The notes: generated from the sequence alone by a model not told the origin. A stretch of DNA of 32,000 nucleotides from Methanopyrus kandleri AV19 (GCF_000007185.1 NC_003551.1:570001-602000); one strand, 5' to 3'; positions 6,333 through 19,730 are shown, counted from the stretch's first letter. Translations and numbers: made by a program.

Positions 6333-6439
6333 GACCCGCCTCCCCCGCGCGCTGCCCGTAACTCGGAGCTTAAATTAGCGCCGTTCGGATCCCGCGTGAT
6401 GGATAATAAGGCGGTGGAAATGTACCTCCCGCGATTAAC

Positions 6440-6700
6440 ACTCCCCGGTCACCGGTCACCGGACTGGCTCATCCCTTGTCCGGGGAGGACCCTCGCGCGG
6501 GAGGCTATCCCCGCCTGTCCCGCGTCGGGGTTGACCGTCCGGTCATCCCCGGTCCTCACGACCGTGTCCCGGAGGGACCGTGCGACGCGGGTGTACCCCG
6601 GGTCTCGACCCCGGGCTTCACGGCCTAGGGTATCCTCCCCGCTCCACCCGGGTCGGCGGGGCCCCGGGGCGGGGACGGCGGGGGATTCCACCGGAAAGAA
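6440..6700. ncRNA. Candidate structured ncRNA (identity and strand unresolved)
   Basis: This is a 520-nt gap between gap and tfb, and its core is visibly more GC-rich than the flanking CDS. Nested long-range complementarities are present: 6481-6489 with 6633-6641, and 6519-6527 (CCCGCGTCG) with 6583-6591 (CGACGCGGG). Several local hairpins lie inside. The ORFs here are Arg/Pro/Gly-rich and not protein-like. Confidence 0.3.
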
Positions 6701-6852
6701 CGTGACTTGTGGGTGACCTTGAAGGTTACCCCGGTTGCTTCCCCTACGTGTGTGAGATTGGTATATGGTGGGGGTAGAGCGCGCGATCGTAGTCCCACGG
6801 TCGGATCGCGAGTTTCGGAAACGCCGTGGTTTCTGTGTTTCCCTCGAGGGTC

Positions 6853-7878
6853 TCACGCCGGCACGTCGATCTTAGTTGGGTCCGGAACTTCCAGGCCCAG
6901 CTCCTCGGCCAGCTCCTTGTACCGATTCCTGATCGTGACTTCGGTAACTCCCGAGATCTTCGCAACCTCGGGCTGTGTCCGACGGCACGTTCGGAGCTTC
7001 TCGTTGAGCTCACGTTCGAGCTTCTCCTTCTCTTCCTCCGACTCGGCCTCCTTCATCTTCTCGCGGTACTCCTCTATGTACTCCTTAGCCTTGAGGAGCC
7101 CGGCCAGGTACAGGGCCGCGCCCGCCAGTCCGGCCGGGTTGCGGCTCACGGTCAGGCCCTTCTTCTCGGCTTTCTCCAGGATCTCACGGGCTAGCATTTC
7201 GACATCTTCAGAGACACCCAGCTCGGTCGCGAATCGGGACAGGTACTGCTTCGGATCCGGAGCGGGCATACGCTCGTTCAGGTGCCGGAGTAGGACCCGA
7301 TGCGTTCGGTTGATGTCTTTGGGCGTGATCCCGAACAGTTTCGCAATCTCCTTGATAGTACGGGGGTGCTTACGCTTCTTACACGCCATGAACAGTGCGG
7401 CCGCGGCCGTGTTCTCGATCGACCTACCTCGGACTAGATCCTTCTCCACGGCCTTCCGATAAATCCGGATCGCTTCATCCACGATGGACCGGGGGATGTT
7501 AGCCTGCGAGCATACCCTCTCAATAAGTTCTACGGCGGATCGGATGTTCCTGCTGACCGGGTCGTTCGAAATCCACCTATCCCACCTCTTCAGACGCCTG
7601 AACCGCCAGTCCACGAGACGCCGACCGCGAGTGTCACGGTCATCGATGATCGTGTCCCCTAACTTGTGCGGATGACGCTCCGAGATGGGTGCACCCGTAC
7701 GCTCACGCTGCGCGCGCTGATCCGCGTTGAAGGCCCTCCACTCGGGCCCGTAGTCGATCAGATAGTCGACGACGGTGCCGCAGTCCCGACAGACCAGTTC
7801 CCCGTGCTTCTCGTCACGCTCTAGGTTCGTGCTGCCACACTTCGGGCACACCCGATGCTCCGACTCGGTGTAGACCAT
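6853..7878 (-). CDS. tfb: Transcription initiation factor TFB (TFIIB homologue)
   Basis: 341 aa. N-terminal Zn ribbon CPKCG...CRDCG, two cyclin repeats, and C-terminal VTEVTIRNRYKEL. A charged insertion of about 35 aa sits in repeat 2. Confidence 0.92.
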   Translation of the reverse strand: MVYTESEHRVCPKCGSTNLERDEKHGELVCRDCGTVVDYLIDYGPEWRAFNADQRAQRERTGAPISERHPHKLGDTIIDDRDTRGRRLVDWRFRRLKRWDRWISNDPVSRNIRSAVELIERVCSQANIPRSIVDEAIRIYRKAVEKDLVRGRSIENTAAAALFMACKKRKHPRTIKEIAKLFGITPKDINRTHRVLLRHLNERMPAPDPKQYLSRFATELGVSEDVEMLAREILEKAEKKGLTVSRNPAGLAGAALYLAGLLKAKEYIEEYREKMKEAESEEEKEKLERELNEKLRTCRRTQPEVAKISGVTEVTIRNRYKELAEELGLEVPDPTKIDVPA

Positions 7879-7943
7879 GGCGGCCTCACCCCCTTACGCC
7901 GGGAAACGGCCCGGTTGGCTTTTCGGGAAAGATTTTAAATAGA

Positions 7944-8234
7944 TTACTCCCCGCTGCGCGGGCACAGTCCCACCGCGAGCACGGCCAACGAGCAGACCAG
8001 GGCCAGCCGGTACGTTAGCGGCGTGTCCAGTCCCAACAGCTTCACTATCACGGTCACCGCGACGATAGCGCCGACGGAGTGTGCGGTCGCCTTGACCCAG
8101 CGTTCGTCGATCTCACTCTCGCCGGACTTGAGCGCGGGCAGACCCTTGCGCACCACCACGTAGCAGGCCAACCCCAATATCACGGCCTCCACGATCGGCG
8201 CCGCCAGGTACTCCTCGATCATCGTCCCGGTCAT
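7944..8234 (-). CDS. Small membrane protein
   Basis: 96 aa with 3 hydrophobic segments. Its ATG overlaps the TGA of the upstream SelA-like gene (ATGA at 8231-8234), which suggests translational coupling. Confidence 0.5.
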   Translation of the reverse strand: MTGTMIEEYLAAPIVEAVILGLACYVVVRKGLPALKSGESEIDERWVKATAHSVGAIVAVTVIVKLLGLDTPLTYRLALVCSLAVLAVGLCPRSGE

Positions 8235-9229
8235 GACAGCTCCCCCTTCACGACCTCGACGAACCGATCGTAACCGAACCGCTCCGCGTCCTCCGTCAGA
8301 AGATTGAAGCGCAAGGTTCTATCCACACGCTCGTAACCCAGGGCGGTTATGGTCATAATCCCGTACCGTCGCAGCAACCCGAGCCCTATCTCCACCTCCC
8401 GTTCCACCCCGTGGAACACCAGACCCGCACCCGTCCGTTCCACGTCGAGCTCGTCCTTGAGCCGCTCGTACACGCGTTCAAGTTCCTTTAACCGAGCTTC
8501 CAGTGAGCTCAACTCGAACTCTTCAAAGGCCCTTTTTACGGCCGCGAGCGTCGGTCCATCGACCGTCCAACCGTATCCTTCGCAGACCCGCCGCACGCCC
8601 TCCACGAGGTCGTCCCGTCCGATCAGCACGCCGGCGCGTGGCCCGTCCATCAGCTTGTCGCAGCTCGTTACCACTAGGTCGAACCCGTACCTCGGACCCG
8701 GCTTTTGGCCGTGCAATCGACGTACTCGGTCGCCCGAAGCGTCGTCCAGCAGCGTCACGGCCTCCGCGGAGGCGACCTCCCTCAGAGTGTCCTCGCTTAC
8801 CACGTTCCAACGCACGTCGCAACCCGTTACGACCACGAGATCGAACCCGTCGAGATCGGGTATCTCCGACTCCTCGACCTCCTCGTACTCCGCCCCCGCC
8901 AACCTGCAGCCTTCCTCCACGCATGGGTGGGCTTCACCGTCCTCGGGTAGTACGTGCAACACACTCCTCGGCTCGAGGGCCAGGATCGTCGCGATAACGG
9001 CCGCCGTCGTCCTAGGGGCCACCAGTACCTCGTACTCCGGAGCGTCGAAGTGCTCCCGACAGAGCTCCCGGATCTCCGGCAAAATCAGCGCTTCCGACAG
9101 ATAGGTACGGAGCTCGTCCGAGGCAGCGTCGACCTTCGGTCGCGACGCCAACCCGGTGAAGTCGTAGAGTGGGTCGCCCCGCGAGATCCTCTCCCTGATT
9201 ATCTCCAACGCTCGATCCCTAACCTTCAT
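8231..9229 (-). CDS. SelA-like PLP-dependent protein (MJ0158-type)
   Basis: The track ORF runs to 9589, but its first 120 aa are R/G-rich and overlap the upstream gene. ATG at 9229 (MKVRDRALEII...) forms an ATGA overlap with the upstream stop. The motif DLVVTSCDKLMDGPRAGVLIG matches the SelA PLP-lysine block (DLVxFSGDKLLGGPQAGII). Confidence 0.65.
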   Translation of the reverse strand: MKVRDRALEIIRERISRGDPLYDFTGLASRPKVDAASDELRTYLSEALILPEIRELCREHFDAPEYEVLVAPRTTAAVIATILALEPRSVLHVLPEDGEAHPCVEEGCRLAGAEYEEVEESEIPDLDGFDLVVVTGCDVRWNVVSEDTLREVASAEAVTLLDDASGDRVRRLHGQKPGPRYGFDLVVTSCDKLMDGPRAGVLIGRDDLVEGVRRVCEGYGWTVDGPTLAAVKRAFEEFELSSLEARLKELERVYERLKDELDVERTGAGLVFHGVEREVEIGLGLLRRYGIMTITALGYERVDRTLRFNLLTEDAERFGYDRFVEVVKGELS

Positions 9230-10800
9230 CGACCGAACACCCGCCGCAGGCTGGCTTCCAATATCTCGCACCGATTCGACCCTACCGCACCGCAGTACCC
9301 ACAACCTGGACACTCCCGACGGAAACCTCGAGCCGCCTCCTCCGGGGGAACCTCCCGCCACCGCCCGAGAACGCGCTCTCCCCACCGTAGCGACTCCTCG
9401 CTGGCGACCTTCCGGATCTCGCCCTCGGGACGTAACCACCTCCAAACGTGATACCGGAGCCAATCGCGCGGCAACCCGTGCCTCTCGCGGTATCGCTCGA
9501 GCGTTTCCATCCACCCCTCCCAAAGTTCGGGATGTACGCGCTCCGATAGCCTGAAGTCCCCGACTTTGCTCGCCGGGCACATGTAACACCCTATTCTGTC
9601 GAACCCCTCATCGTAAAGCGGGTTGTACGGTAAATCCTTGGAGTGCACGCACAACCAGACGTCCAGGGACGACCAATCGAAGATAGGGGCCACGTTCACC
9701 TGTCCCGGCACCGCGTCGCTGTCCCACACCCTACCCCGCTCGGATCGGGCCTCGGACTCGTACCTTCGGACGCCCACCAGCGTGTAACACCCTCGGCCGA
9801 ACTCGGAGCGAACGTACCTCGTAACAGGGGTGAGCTTCGCGGCCAGCGTGCACCACCTGTTATCTCGAGAAGGAGGTAGTAGAGCTTCCGTCACCCGGTG
9901 GAATATCTCCGGGTCCCCTTCGACTATTTCCACGTCGATACCCACGGCCTCGGCGGCCCGGTCCGCTGCCTCCACGGTCTCCGGCAACTCCATACCCGTG
10001 TCCACGAAGAGCGCGCGCTCCACCCCCGCCTCCGCGGCCACCACTAAGGTGACCAGACTGTCCTTGCCGCCCGAGAAGGAGGCGAAGGTCCGGGACGGGC
10101 TCACGTTCTCCCGGGCGAACGTCACCGCCTCCTCCAGCCGTTCCGAAACGTACTCCTCGTGCGCCCGCGCCACGTCCTCGAAGTCCCTGCCGCGGAAGTA
10201 CGTTGGAGACCCCTCTACGGCACCTCTCACCTCCACGGCCAGTCCGCGGTTCCGGCGGACCATTTCGTCCCCCGACATCCTGGCCCGACCGAAGGCCACC
10301 GGGCGACCCCCGTGTTCGATCACCACCCACTCACCGGGCTCGACGTCGTCCGCGGACGTCACGCCCGGCGCGAACAGGTTCTTCCCCTCCCTCACCGCCT
10401 CCGCGGCCCCACGGTCCACCTCGATCGATTTCCCGCCCAACTCGTGGAGACGCCGCGCCCCCTCCGGCTTGAGCACGATCGTCCAACGGTCCTTCCGTAA
10501 GTCGTACCGCAGCGCCAGTACCGGCTCGGCGGCGACGATCTCGTCCAGGTAATCGAGATCAGGCGCACGATTCGCGAGGAGCAGCTCGTCGTCACGCACG
10601 AGATCGGCCGGTAATCCCTCCTCCACCAAAACCTCACGGATGAACTCCAAGTAGCCGGGGCCTACCGGTCGGAGCTCCGCCGGAGGGGTCACGCGTAGCG
10701 GGTCCGTACCTTCACCACACTCCGGACACCGACGCAGCGGCGTGACGAGCTCGCACTCCTGGCACACGTAGGCGGGGGCCTTACCCGGGAGCTTCTCCAT
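9226..10800 (-). CDS. Zn-ribbon / PUA-like / PP-loop (PAPS reductase-like) protein with C-terminal Cys cluster
   Basis: 524 aa. N-terminal CQEC...CPECG ribbon. The PUA-like segment reads GKNLFAPGVTSADDVEPGEWVVIEHGGRPVAFGRA. PP-loop SFSGGKDS lies in a PAPS-reductase-like core (YESEARS, PIFDWS, GCYMCP). The C-terminal motif is CPGCGYCGAVGSNRC. Confidence 0.75.
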   Translation of the reverse strand: MEKLPGKAPAYVCQECELVTPLRRCPECGEGTDPLRVTPPAELRPVGPGYLEFIREVLVEEGLPADLVRDDELLLANRAPDLDYLDEIVAAEPVLALRYDLRKDRWTIVLKPEGARRLHELGGKSIEVDRGAAEAVREGKNLFAPGVTSADDVEPGEWVVIEHGGRPVAFGRARMSGDEMVRRNRGLAVEVRGAVEGSPTYFRGRDFEDVARAHEEYVSERLEEAVTFARENVSPSRTFASFSGGKDSLVTLVVAAEAGVERALFVDTGMELPETVEAADRAAEAVGIDVEIVEGDPEIFHRVTEALLPPSRDNRWCTLAAKLTPVTRYVRSEFGRGCYTLVGVRRYESEARSERGRVWDSDAVPGQVNVAPIFDWSSLDVWLCVHSKDLPYNPLYDEGFDRIGCYMCPASKVGDFRLSERVHPELWEGWMETLERYRERHGLPRDWLRYHVWRWLRPEGEIRKVASEESLRWGERVLGRWREVPPEEAARGFRRECPGCGYCGAVGSNRCEILEASLRRVFGR

Positions 10801-12349
10801 CCCAGTACCCCCGGTAGACCTCCGCGAACCCCTCCACGCCCAGCCGGTTGACCGCCGCCTCGGTCGCGCGCAGGGCCCGCTCGATCCTCCCGCGCCACGT
10901 GCCCTCCAGGCGCTCGGCGGCCGCGAGCTCCGCCCGCAGTCGATCCAAGGTCACTTCCAGTCGTCCGGGATCGGTGGACCCCTCCACGGGGCGCCGGAGC
11001 GTCCTCTTCAGACTCAGGACTTCGCGGACCTCCTCGACCCGCAGCTTCACCCCTTCCCGTTCGAGCTCCTCGACCACCCGATCCGCCCGCTCGGGGCTCA
11101 TGGGAACTCCTTCGCGGTCCAGCCGCGCCGAGACCCTGCCCACGACCTTGTGCGCCTCCCGGAACGTCAGTCCCGCCCGCTCCGCCACGAGCTCCGCCAG
11201 GTCGACGGCGGCCGCGTGCGATCCCAGGACGGTACCCCGGGCCGCCTCCTCGTCCACGTCCAGTCCCTCGACCACCTTACGGAGCACCCGCACGCACAGC
11301 TCGAACCGGTTCACCGAGTCCCATAGCAGGCCGTTCAACACCTGGAGGTCCCGGTTGTAGAACATCGGAAGCTTACCGTGGACGGCGTCCCCGAGCCCCT
11401 TCAGTCCCGCGACTACGGTCAGCTCGGCCCGGACGAGCTCCAGCGCGTCCGGGTTCTTCTTGTGCGGCATCACCGAGCTCGTCGACGACAGCTCGTCCGG
11501 GGGCTCCACCACCCCGAGCTCGTCGGAGCACAGCTGTATCAGGTCCCCGGCCAACCTGGTCAGCTCCGAGGCCGCGGTGGCCAGTCTCCCGAGGAACTCC
11601 AGGATCGGTCCCCTCAACGCCGTGGCCTCACCGCAGTGCCGCGCCGGTTTCCGGAAGCCCAGCAACGCGGCCTCCCGGTGCCTGTCCACAGGAACCGTCG
11701 ATCCCGGGAACGCGGAGCACCCCAGCGGGCACTCGTCCATCCCCGGGACCCTGAGCAACCCCCGGGCGGAACGCGCGACCGCCGCCGCGTAGGTGGACAT
11801 CCAGAACCCGATCGTGCACGGCTGCGCCCGCTTCAGGTGCGTGTACCCGGCGATCGGTACCTCGGCGTGCTCCCGGGCCAGGTCCAGCAGCGCCCTCCCG
11901 AGCCCGACCAGCTCGCGCGACAGGTCCAGCGCGCGCTCCCTCAGCCGCATCCGCACGCTCGTCGCCACCTGGTCGTTCCTGCTCCTGCCGAGCTGCAGCC
12001 ATCCGGCTTCCTCGCCGACCACTTCGTGTAGCCTCGACTCTATGGCCTCGTGGACGTCCTCGGCGTCCTCGGGCAGCCGGTCGGGACCTTCCTCGAGAAC
12101 CGTTACGAGACCCTCAACGATTCCCGCCGCGGTTGAGCGATCTATCCTCCCGGCCTCCCACAGTGACACCGCGTGGACCACCGAGTTCCACACGTCGCAG
12201 TGGAAGATCTCCCGGTCCTGCTCCAGCGACGATGACAATTCCGCGAAGTCCGGGTCGCGGCCGCCGGAGACGCGACCGCCCCGGTAGGACGGTCTCCCCA
12301 GTGCCAATCTCGTCACACCCACAGGGTCGGTGGGGGTAACTCCGGTCAT
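10781..12349 (-). CDS. argH: Argininosuccinate lyase
   Basis: Fumarate-lyase superfamily signature SSVMPHKKNPD, GYTHLKRAQP, and an N-terminal GGRVSGG block. I prefer ATG at 12349 over GTG at 12388, because the TATA-like TTAAAAGG at about 12403-12412 sits only about 15 nt from 12388. It overlaps the next gene by 20 nt. Confidence 0.88.
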   Translation of the reverse strand: MTGVTPTDPVGVTRLALGRPSYRGGRVSGGRDPDFAELSSSLEQDREIFHCDVWNSVVHAVSLWEAGRIDRSTAAGIVEGLVTVLEEGPDRLPEDAEDVHEAIESRLHEVVGEEAGWLQLGRSRNDQVATSVRMRLRERALDLSRELVGLGRALLDLAREHAEVPIAGYTHLKRAQPCTIGFWMSTYAAAVARSARGLLRVPGMDECPLGCSAFPGSTVPVDRHREAALLGFRKPARHCGEATALRGPILEFLGRLATAASELTRLAGDLIQLCSDELGVVEPPDELSSTSSVMPHKKNPDALELVRAELTVVAGLKGLGDAVHGKLPMFYNRDLQVLNGLLWDSVNRFELCVRVLRKVVEGLDVDEEAARGTVLGSHAAAVDLAELVAERAGLTFREAHKVVGRVSARLDREGVPMSPERADRVVEELEREGVKLRVEEVREVLSLKRTLRRPVEGSTDPGRLEVTLDRLRAELAAAERLEGTWRGRIERALRATEAAVNRLGVEGFAEVYRGYWDGEAPG

Positions 12350-12470
12350 CCCGGGGGGATGGGCACATACGTCGCGGCTGACGTGCACGTCGTTCCCCTA
12401 CGGTTAAAAGGTAACCGGTCAGGCTGCGCCGCGTAGCCGTGAGCGGGGGGAAACGACACTGATATTCCCG

Positions 12471-13118
12471 ATGGCACTCCTCCTCACGCTGATCCTCGCA
12501 TTGGGCTTCACAAGTCTCCCGCTCAACGCCCCACCTCATCTCAGCGCGGACGTGCCCGACACGTACCCCTGGGTCGGTGTGTACCCACCGGACGTGGAGG
12601 TCACGTACGTCAACAACTGGGACCCGAACCTCAACCCGGAACACATCGAGGACTGGAAGTGCATCGCCAGGGAAATCCTCGGTGACCCGAAGTCCTGGTG
12701 GGAGCAGTACACCGCCGGCACACCGCTGGACGAGCTCGTCTACGAGGCCGCCAAGAAGATAGAGTACTGGGTGTCACCCTACGACGACGTCGACCCGCAC
12801 GGCATCAAGTACCGGTACTACTACAACACGAGATACGGCGCCTGGAAGACACTGCAGCTCGGTCGTGGTAACTGCTGCGACCACGCCCACGTCATGGTCG
12901 CCCTGTGCAGGGCGTCCGGCATCGCCATCAGGTACCGTCACGAGGTCACCCGGTTCCCGTGCTGGGGCACGTGCGACCACGTCTGCGTCGAGGTGGGACT
13001 GCCCGAGAACGTCGTCGACGGTAAGTCCCAGGACGTGAAGTGGGTCCGCATGGACCCCACCAACCCCAACTCGCAGTGCGTCCGGCTGAAGGCCACGTAC
13101 CCGAACCTCCCCTTCTAA
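12471..13118 (+). CDS. Secreted transglutaminase-like cysteine protease-fold protein
   Basis: 215 aa with a hydrophobic N-terminal signal-like segment. Cys-His-Asp arrangement: GRGNCCDHAHVMVALCRASGIAIRY ... DHVCVEV ... MDPTN. Confidence 0.6.
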   Translation: MALLLTLILALGFTSLPLNAPPHLSADVPDTYPWVGVYPPDVEVTYVNNWDPNLNPEHIEDWKCIAREILGDPKSWWEQYTAGTPLDELVYEAAKKIEYWVSPYDDVDPHGIKYRYYYNTRYGAWKTLQLGRGNCCDHAHVMVALCRASGIAIRYRHEVTRFPCWGTCDHVCVEVGLPENVVDGKSQDVKWVRMDPTNPNSQCVRLKATYPNLPF

Positions 13119-14969: not shown

Positions 14970-15046
14970 GGGCCCGCAGTTCAGCCCGGCAGAACGCCGG
15001 CCTTACGAGCCGGTGGTCCCGGGTTCAAATCCCGGCGGGCCCACCA
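14970..15046 (+). tRNA. tRNA-Val (anticodon UAC), CCA encoded
   Basis: Hand-folded cloverleaf. Acceptor GGGCCCG/CGGGCCC, D arm GTTC-AGCCCGGCA-GAAC, anticodon arm CCGGC-CTTACGA-GCCGG, T arm CCGGG-TTCAAAT-CCCGG, discriminator A, then CCA. Position 8 is C. Confidence 0.9.
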
Positions 15047-15264: not shown

Positions 15265-18376
<3,112 letters not shown>

Positions 18377-19640: not shown

Positions 19641-19730
19641 GCGGGGGCGCCCGAGCCTGGTCAAAGGGGCGGGAATGAGGATCCCGTGGCCGTAGGGCCG
19701 TCCCGGGTTCAAATCCCGGCCCCCGCACCA
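19641..19730 (+). tRNA. tRNA-Leu (anticodon GAG), class II, CCA encoded
   Basis: Hand-folded. Acceptor GCGGGGG/CCCCCGC, anticodon arm CGGGA-ATGAGGA-TCCCG, long variable arm GGCC-GTAG-GGCC, T arm CCGGG-TTCAAAT-CCCGG, discriminator A, then CCA. Position 8 is C. Confidence 0.9.

Follow-up and report, generated by a model that had tools for sequence, protein, structure and literature searches.

In a 32,000-nt stretch of the Methanopyrus kandleri AV19 genome (GCF_000007185.1, NC_003551.1:570001-602000; hereafter the window, in whose coordinates positions are given), the gene of a 524-residue protein with Zn-ribbon, PUA and PP-loop domains overlaps that of a 332-residue pyridoxal phosphate (PLP) enzyme of the MJ0158 type. 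An earlier note on this DNA had proposed that the pair forms an RNA-directed module for sulfur or selenium transfer. If true, this would be a new transfer system. A comparison of genomes gave it no support: the two families were co-localised in Methanopyri only, the pairing was absent from 77 further PLP loci and from 89 PP-loop loci, and the distributions were decoupled. The likely explanation is that a packed, lineage-specific gene string juxtaposes two independently conserved archaeal enzymes, which work separately. Because the genes are neighbours in the Methanopyri lineage only, a joint sulfur or selenium transfer machine is not probable. Both families are already catalogued, as PRK13795/MJ0066 and TIGR03576/MJ0158, respectively. 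The main interest of the locus lies in the former, a pan-archaeal PUA/PP-loop family that papers and annotations alike call 'PAPS reductase' (3'-phosphoadenosine 5'-phosphosulfate reductase), which is likely a mis-annotation. The PP-loop and PLP enzymes are good orphan-enzyme targets to be studied separately, and the PP-loop protein is the more interesting lead.

The string and the elements that follow it are:

10781..12388, minus strand: argH (argininosuccinate lyase); TIGR00838, 346 bits against a cut-off of 279.5; Lyase_1 and ASL_C2 domains
9226..10800, minus strand: 524-residue Zn-ribbon/PUA/PAPS-reductase-like PP-loop protein with a C-terminal Cys cluster; NF010367, 836.1 bits against a cut-off of 456
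9226..9229, minus strand: ATGA common to the PP-loop stop and the PLP start (sequence and gene calls)
8231..9229, minus strand: 332-residue MJ0158-type fold-type-I PLP enzyme (TIGR03576/UPF0425; PDB 2AEU)
8231..8234, minus strand: ATGA common to the PLP stop and the membrane-protein start (sequence and gene calls)
7944..8234, minus strand: 96-residue hydrophobic/membrane protein (gene calls), overlapping the PLP gene
7930..7941, minus strand: AT-rich TATA-like element TATTTAAAAT, located between the string and the TFB gene, upstream of the latter; the sole one between 7800 and 12700 on this strand
6853-7878, minus strand: TFB gene, after a 65-nt gap behind the membrane-protein gene

On the PLP side, one genome per GTDB species was scanned, which gave 246 relatives; 80 of the 246 loci were kept, with flanks of up to 10 kb. 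On the PP-loop side, seven PLP queries were run against 89 loci (9 from genomes or assemblies and 80 from metagenomes), taken with at most 8 kb of flanking sequence. The PP-loop gene adjoined the PLP gene in three of the 80 PLP loci (tblastn), all of them from metagenome-assembled genomes (MAGs) of Methanopyri (L001-L003). These three keep the complete order of argH, PP-loop, PLP, membrane protein and TFB; they share the whole synteny and therefore represent one inherited arrangement, not independent events. By tblastn, none of the 77 Methanococcales and Methanobacteriales loci had a PP-loop gene within 10 kb of the PLP gene, and no MJ0158-type gene lay near the PP-loop gene in any of the 89 PP-loop loci. 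Methanocaldococcus indicus has both genes, in different neighbourhoods. The Pfam architectures of 44 PLP homologues and about 240 PP-loop homologues showed no natural fusion of the two; the 874-residue P0171, inspected as a candidate fusion, has low-complexity inserts and no PLP domain. Co-localisation in other genomes, on which the earlier note had staked its proposal, thus ended at the border of the Methanopyri, within which the argH-to-TFB block is syntenic.

The phyletic distributions of the two families do not follow each other, whichever of the two is taken as the reference. Members of the pan-archaeal PP-loop family occur in Methanococcales, Methanosarcinales, Methanomicrobiales, Methanomassiliicoccales, Thermoplasmata, Thermoprotei/Desulfurococcales and Asgard archaea. 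The PLP family scarcely reaches beyond class I methanogens: its matches, among the 80 loci kept, came from Methanopyri, Methanococcales and Methanobacteriales, plus one 2-kb contig labelled Bathyarchaeia. Most of these loci belong to Methanobacteriales, an order for which the use of selenocysteine (Sec) is not known. In Table S1 of PMC6286981, the 'putative_paps_reductase' family has no entry in any of the 18 Methanobacteriales genomes. Since each family is widespread without the other, each protein must function widely alone. With neither independent co-localisation nor a matching distribution observed, a two-gene module of PP-loop and PLP proteins was not supported.

The overlapping four-gene layout described in the earlier note was borne out by the sequence and the gene calls. 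Read directly, the overlaps along the string of argH, PP-loop, PLP and membrane-protein genes measure 20, 4 and 4 nt; the first arises from the argH stop at 10781-10783 and the PP-loop ATG at 10800-10798. argH opens the string, and public gene calls for its start differ, giving 508 or 535 residues. The ATGA coupling of the PP-loop and PLP genes holds for M. kandleri and did not extend to two Methanopyri MAGs: it is a feature of Methanopyrus proper only, and the genes lie about 81 and 50 nt apart in L001 and L003. The 96-residue membrane protein had no Pfam or NCBIfam match; its homologues were found in Methanopyri only, with 43-60% identity in L001-L003. When 7800-12700 was scanned, no AT-rich TATA-like element was seen within the string on its strand. 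As the sole such element lies after it, the string, argH through membrane-protein gene, appears to be transcribed as a single unit.

Several points weigh against a separate role for the two enzymes. The string is the sole overlapping one within the 21-kb neighbourhood. In Methanopyrus, the PP-loop and PLP genes are likely co-expressed, judging from the coupling and the lack of an internal TATA-like element, and their adjacency is kept across Methanopyri at 57-70% identity. Class I methanogens are generally not known to have desulfurases of the IscS/SufS type, so an alternative PLP-dependent mobiliser of sulfur would be welcome. In Methanobacterium-type genomes, the PLP gene stands between the genes for RtcA and a NYN protein, which gives it another RNA-flavoured setting, independent of the first. 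Finally, Table S1 of PMC6286981 lists, in a separate column, SufS-fused 'putative APS reductase' (adenosine 5'-phosphosulfate reductase) paralogues in Methanomicrobiales, which means that PP-loop/PLP partnerships do occur in the superfamily.

These points could be accommodated by a Methanopyri system in which the PLP enzyme draws sulfur or selenium from an amino-acid donor and passes it to the PUA/PP-loop/Fe-S enzyme, which adenylates, then thiolates or selenates, an RNA, with the membrane protein perhaps as an accessory. The ATGA coupling, the single apparent transcription unit, the adjacency retained across Methanopyri, the SufS-fused paralogues and the hallmarks of Fe-S PP-loop thiolases in the 524-residue protein agree with it. 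We nevertheless regard it as unlikely. Neither the other 77 PLP loci nor the 89 other PP-loop loci showed co-localisation, each family is widespread without the other, and the ATGA overlap is missing in two Methanopyri MAGs. The PLP family shows no Aminotran_5 signature and has no invariant Cys on which a persulfide or perselenide could be held, and divergent relatives beside genes for transporters, a gamma-glutamyltranspeptidase and an aldehyde dehydrogenase suggest small-molecule chemistry. The selenium link is weak as well: Methanobacteriales, for which no use of selenocysteine is known, have the PLP gene in abundance. The family does not always occur together with Sec systems (PMC1717018).

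For the 524-residue protein, the earlier reading of its domains (Zn ribbon, PUA, PP-loop core and Cys motif) was confirmed by Pfam and motif searches:

10717..10764, minus strand: Zn ribbon C13-x2-C16...C25-x2-C28; the four Cys are nearly invariant among 70 aligned sequences (at least 90%)
10225..10428, minus strand: PUA domain, residues 125-192 (Pfam PF01472, E=5e-21)
9571..10086, minus strand: PAPS-reductase-fold ATP-pyrophosphatase core, residues 239-410 (Pfam PF01507 PAPS_reduct, E=4e-37)
10057-10074, minus strand: PP-loop S243-GGKDS248, within the PAPS_reduct core
9268..9312, minus strand: C-terminal cluster C497-x2-C500-x2-C503-x7-C511, aligned to the ferredoxin domain of homologues

The protein is assigned by NF010367 (PRK13795.1-2, 'hypothetical protein') at the score given above; from this full-length match of a hidden Markov model (HMM) and from its domain order, it is the Methanopyrus orthologue within the MJ0066/PRK13795 family. 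It has the family's order of Zn ribbon, PUA and PAPS_reduct domains and about 30% identity to the Methanococcales members. In the family alignment (the 524-residue protein and 69 other members), S243-G-G-K-D-S248, R315, C317, K322, C405, C408 and P409 were invariant, and no Cys besides C317, C405 and C408 was. The family varies at the C-terminus. Most homologues (600-690 residues) terminate in a 2x[4Fe-4S] ferredoxin domain (Fer4), whereas Methanococcales and Methanomicrobiales forms have none, the Methanococcales members stopping soon after a WRW motif. Methanopyri keep a single CxxCxxCx7C, which aligns as a remnant of the 2x[4Fe-4S] domain.

An AlphaFold2 model of the protein (pLDDT 95.3, pTM 0.93) gave no full-length match when searched with Foldseek against the PDB. 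Its N-terminal half superposed on the pre-PUA/PUA RNA-binding modules of PH0734.1, MCT-1, NSun6 and ArcTGT. The core superposed on (P)APS reductases (TMt 0.66-0.71) and also on the PAPS domain of FAD synthase, and TtuA was matched more loosely (E of about 2e-7, TMt of about 0.45). In one Logan assembly of a Methanopyrus sample (L087:4199-5772), the PP-loop gene was called as two pieces, a 190-residue PUA and a 345-residue PAPS_reduct protein, owing either to a frameshift or to an assembly error.

The question is whether such a protein reduces PAPS. Both PMC6286981 and PMC10322725 refer to the family as 'putative PAPS reductase'. The corresponding column of Table S1 in PMC6286981 contains WP_013099852, Q60377 and M. 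maripaludis WP_011976595; WP_013099852 and WP_011976595 are members of the family of the 524-residue protein. Our family member P0215 is M. infernus WP_013099852 itself, and its appearance in both papers ties the family to MJ0066. PMC10322725 gives WP_013099852 as 58% identical to a M. jannaschii PAPS reductase from an MSc thesis, and an MSc thesis to which PMC6286981 and PMC10322725 refer is the only source of the claim that MJ0066 has PAPS reductase activity. We found no functional study of MJ0066, MMP0941 or UPF0425 in the literature.

A genuine assimilatory PAPS reductase, turning PAPS into sulfite, with the PLP enzyme unrelated or placed later in sulfur amino-acid metabolism, would agree with these names, with the 58% identity to the M. 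jannaschii enzyme described as characterised, with the PAPS_reduct fold and the Foldseek matches to CysH and APR, and with the TauE sulfite-exporter-family gene upstream in Methanococcaceae. Against it, the protein scored far below every curated (P)APS-reductase cut-off: TIGR00434 gave 58.7 bits against 165.1, TIGR02055 58.4 against 235.3, TIGR02057 48.7 against 254.2 and NF002537 (PRK02090) 79.1 against 154. It left the final 25-31 positions of these models unmatched, positions that hold the catalytic Cys tail, and its alignment to 2GOY stops at the CxxC. In CysH and APR, the catalytic tail motif is of the ECGLH type and the PP-loop of CysH is degenerate; here, no C-terminal Cys is conserved, only C317, C405 and C408 are invariant, and the PP-loop is a perfect ATP-pyrophosphatase SGGKDS. 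Sulfonucleotide reduction has no use for a PUA domain. Sulfate-activation genes are missing from many carriers of the family (PMC6286981). The sequence thus speaks against canonical (P)APS-reductase chemistry, and the idea that the protein reduces PAPS at all appears decidedly improbable.

Relative to the assimilatory APS/PAPS reductases (CysH; 1SUR, 2GOY, 7LHR), the protein shares the catalytic-domain fold, and its Cys positions partly match the C(C)...CxxC cluster motif of APR. It differs from CysH in its intact ATP-type PP-loop, in the missing C-terminal Cys tail and in the added Zn-ribbon, PUA and C-terminal domains. With the Fe-S PP-loop tRNA thiolases (TtuA, TtcA, NcsA) and DndC, it has in common the SGGxDS PP-loop, three conserved Cys, a Zn finger and predicted nucleic-acid targeting. 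A likeness to Fe-S PP-loop enzymes of RNA thiolation, which the earlier note had pointed out, was thus upheld by the SGGKDS motif, the three invariant Cys, the superposition on RNA-type PUA modules and the presence of TtuA among the Foldseek matches. The likeness has bounds: the protein belongs to PAPS_reduct and not to ATP_bind_3 (no PF01171 match), its Cys lie at different positions from those of TtuA, TtcA and NcsA, its RNA module is a PUA domain, and it reached 23.5 bits with the DndC model TIGR03183, far below the cut-off of 290.4. No ThiS-like or TtuB-like partner was seen in the PP-loop gene neighbourhoods.

The scores below the (P)APS-reductase cut-offs, the unmatched tail, the absence of other conserved Cys and the perfect ATP-pyrophosphatase PP-loop make us favour an ATP-dependent RNA-modifying enzyme, probably assisted by an Fe-S cluster. 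We infer that the Zn ribbon and the pre-PUA/PUA region would dock an RNA, with a tRNA end as the likeliest target. With its PP-loop intact, the enzyme would adenylate a target atom at the expense of ATP, and a cluster on C317, C405 and C408 (probably [4Fe-4S]) would assist the substitution of that atom, for which sulfur is the most plausible element, as in TtuA, TtcA and DndC. As a separate observation, SufS fusions are reported for the 'putative APS reductase' family (MJ0973, Q58383) in the Methanocorpusculum and Methanoculleus rows of Table S1 of PMC6286981; this suggests that the enzymes of the MJ0973 family, too, may carry out thiolation and not sulfate reduction.

The 332-residue protein matched TIGR03576 over residues 1-331 (476.4 bits against a cut-off of 304.45), contained the UPF0425_C domain PF22583 (E=2.6e-17) and matched PDB 2AEU (MJ0158; E=7e-50). 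Its lysine motif, noted before as DKLxxGPxAG in a SelA-like PLP protein, was found as DKLMDGPRAG:

8654-8656, minus strand: PLP lysine K192 in DKLMDGPRAG, invariant in the family alignment

G196, P197 and R198 are invariant along with K192 in this alignment (TS(T/C)DKLMxGPR motif). From the HMM, the C-terminal domain and the motif, the protein can be placed in TIGR03576/UPF0425, the 'SelA-like' family of class I methanogens, and AAM01835 is its published listing. Its homology to MJ0158 (2AEU/2AEV) is full-length, with the same PLP-lysine motif and UPF0425_C domain; the Methanopyri proteins are about 50 residues shorter and are without the N-terminal extension, the C-terminal-domain insertion and the C-terminal tail. 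The statement that the MJ0158/SelA-like family has no known function agrees with PMC2275076 and PMC1717018; a crystal structure has existed since 2005, and a function is still lacking.

Bacterial SelA is a fold-type-I PLP enzyme too, with local similarity at residues 181-234 around the PLP lysine. The SelA models covered these residues only and stayed below threshold (Pfam 22.2 bits against 22.8; TIGR00474 23 bits against 267.9), and unlike SelA, the 332-residue protein has no N-terminal tRNA-binding domain. A role as SelA Sec synthase was rejected on the full-length HMM and on co-occurrence with Sec decoding: most of the 80 PLP loci come from Methanobacteriales, for which Sec decoding is not known. 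PMC1717018 describes the MJ0158/SelA-like family as not always found together with Sec systems. The same paper lists a SepSecS for M. kandleri. None of the 47 invariant columns of the PLP family alignment holds a Cys, which argues against a persulfide-forming desulfurase or a selenocysteine lyase; with no Aminotran_5 match either, the 332-residue protein was rejected as an IscS-, SufS- or NifS-type enzyme. As an orthologue of MJ0158 within the SelA superfamily, which includes small-molecule enzymes such as DgaE, it would most likely use PLP chemistry at K192 on a small anionic amino compound. Two divergent UPF0425 relatives of 421-425 residues (26-30% identity) were seen in same-strand metagenome clusters (L093:2-3734 and L094:3-3386), one beside a Na+/H+-antiporter-family transporter and a gamma-glutamyltranspeptidase, the other beside an aldehyde dehydrogenase and an MFS transporter. 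Their contexts hint at small-molecule substrates for the wider family.

The neighbours of the PLP gene vary by lineage. About 30 loci of Methanobacterium and Methanothermobacter type (L012:9200-12289, L015, L016, L022, L024 and L027 among them) have it between the genes for NYN (PF01936) and RtcA (PF01137) on one strand, often with a protein of about 110 residues without family and a DUF434/DUF5616 protein upstream. In Methanobacterium-type genomes, the NYN-to-PLP spacing is near zero after allowing for the N-terminal extension. Across Methanobacteriales, the PLP gene adjoins the 110-residue protein (59 loci), often the NYN protein and RtcA, and BirA/PycA lies nearby on the opposite strand. 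NYN and RtcA are missing beside the PLP gene in Methanobrevibacter, Methanosphaera and Methanococcales.

This arrangement bears on the possibility that the MJ0158-type enzyme is itself RNA-directed, acting on an aminoacyl-tRNA or an RNA 3' end with lineage-specific partners, namely the PUA/PP-loop protein or NYN and RtcA. Its SelA-superfamily ancestry, the tight same-strand NYN-PLP-RtcA order in about 30 Methanobacteriales loci and the PUA neighbour in Methanopyri all speak for it. We consider it very unlikely, as PMC2275076 (citing Kaiser et al. 2005) reports that the MJ0158 product was unable to form Sec-tRNA in vitro, the tRNA-binding N-domain is absent, NYN and RtcA are not retained in the three groups just named, the superfamily includes DgaE-like enzymes and the divergent relatives stand in metabolic and transporter contexts. 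Equally slim is the chance of a joint system in which the PLP enzyme would act on an RNA 3' end or aminoacyl-tRNA presented by the PUA/PP-loop/Fe-S enzyme. Such a new RNA-directed insertion of sulfur (or selenium) would operate in Methanopyri and possibly, in trans, in all class I methanogens, hosts that lack IscS/SufS, and in Methanobacterium the NYN/RtcA context would bear witness to this RNA link a second time.

No universal neighbour emerged for either family; all neighbours were lineage-specific. In Methanococcales, the PLP gene adjoins a DUF2098 protein of about 93 residues, which begins with an SH3/KOW-like region and closes with an invariant DACGAG at the C-terminus. It lies upstream on the same strand in L004-L009 and adjacent on the opposite strand in L013 and L019. 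This protein is unrelated to the 110-residue protein of Methanobacteriales (hhalign probability 0.3%), and neither has a homologue in the window. In Methanothermococcus okinawensis (L019:5153-7684), argH is the gene immediately upstream of the PLP gene, in the same orientation and with no PP-loop gene between, so that the argH-PLP neighbourhood recurs in a second order.

The PP-loop gene adjoins TauE and Ehbp in Methanococcaceae, Cas4-like and PurH genes in Methanosarcinales, and the ribosomal-protein/SecY/Adk cluster in M. indicus; in some contigs, an XcbA-family gene (convergent) or hisC (divergent) lies beside it. The XcbA-family protein (NF052538, 186 bits, a model whose name points to coenzyme M synthesis) abuts the 3' end of long-form PP-loop genes in eight metagenome contigs (L111, L112, L118, L123, L129, L135, L156 and L166). 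In Methanomicrobiales-like (Methanolinea-type) contigs, hisH (TIGR01855, 206 bits) is the next gene downstream in eight of eight short-form PP-loop genes (about 470 residues, no ferredoxin). The overlap is 4-38 nt in seven of them and 143 nt in one, as read from crude longest open reading frame (ORF) calls. These loci are:

L090:6388-6996, L152, L153, L157, L159, L167, L171 and L173: hisH linked to short-form PP-loop genes

PP-loop ATP-pyrophosphatases often partner class I glutamine amidotransferases, and the arrangement with hisH may reflect synteny alone or point to amidation chemistry. As the PP-loop gene overlaps argH here and hisH elsewhere, overlap with a housekeeping amino-acid gene is recurrent and does not indicate a shared function.

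Elsewhere in the window, a 23S rRNA gene of full length occupies 15271-18370 on the plus strand, preceded by tRNA-Val(TAC) at 14970-15046. At Rfam gathering thresholds, the whole 32-kb window gave neither a 16S nor a 5S rRNA gene, and a 90-nt tRNA-Leu(GAG) gene is located at 19641-19730. The 520-nt gap between the GAPDH and TFB genes (6333-6852), which contains spurious ORFs only and has no Rfam match, is unusually long for this compact region.

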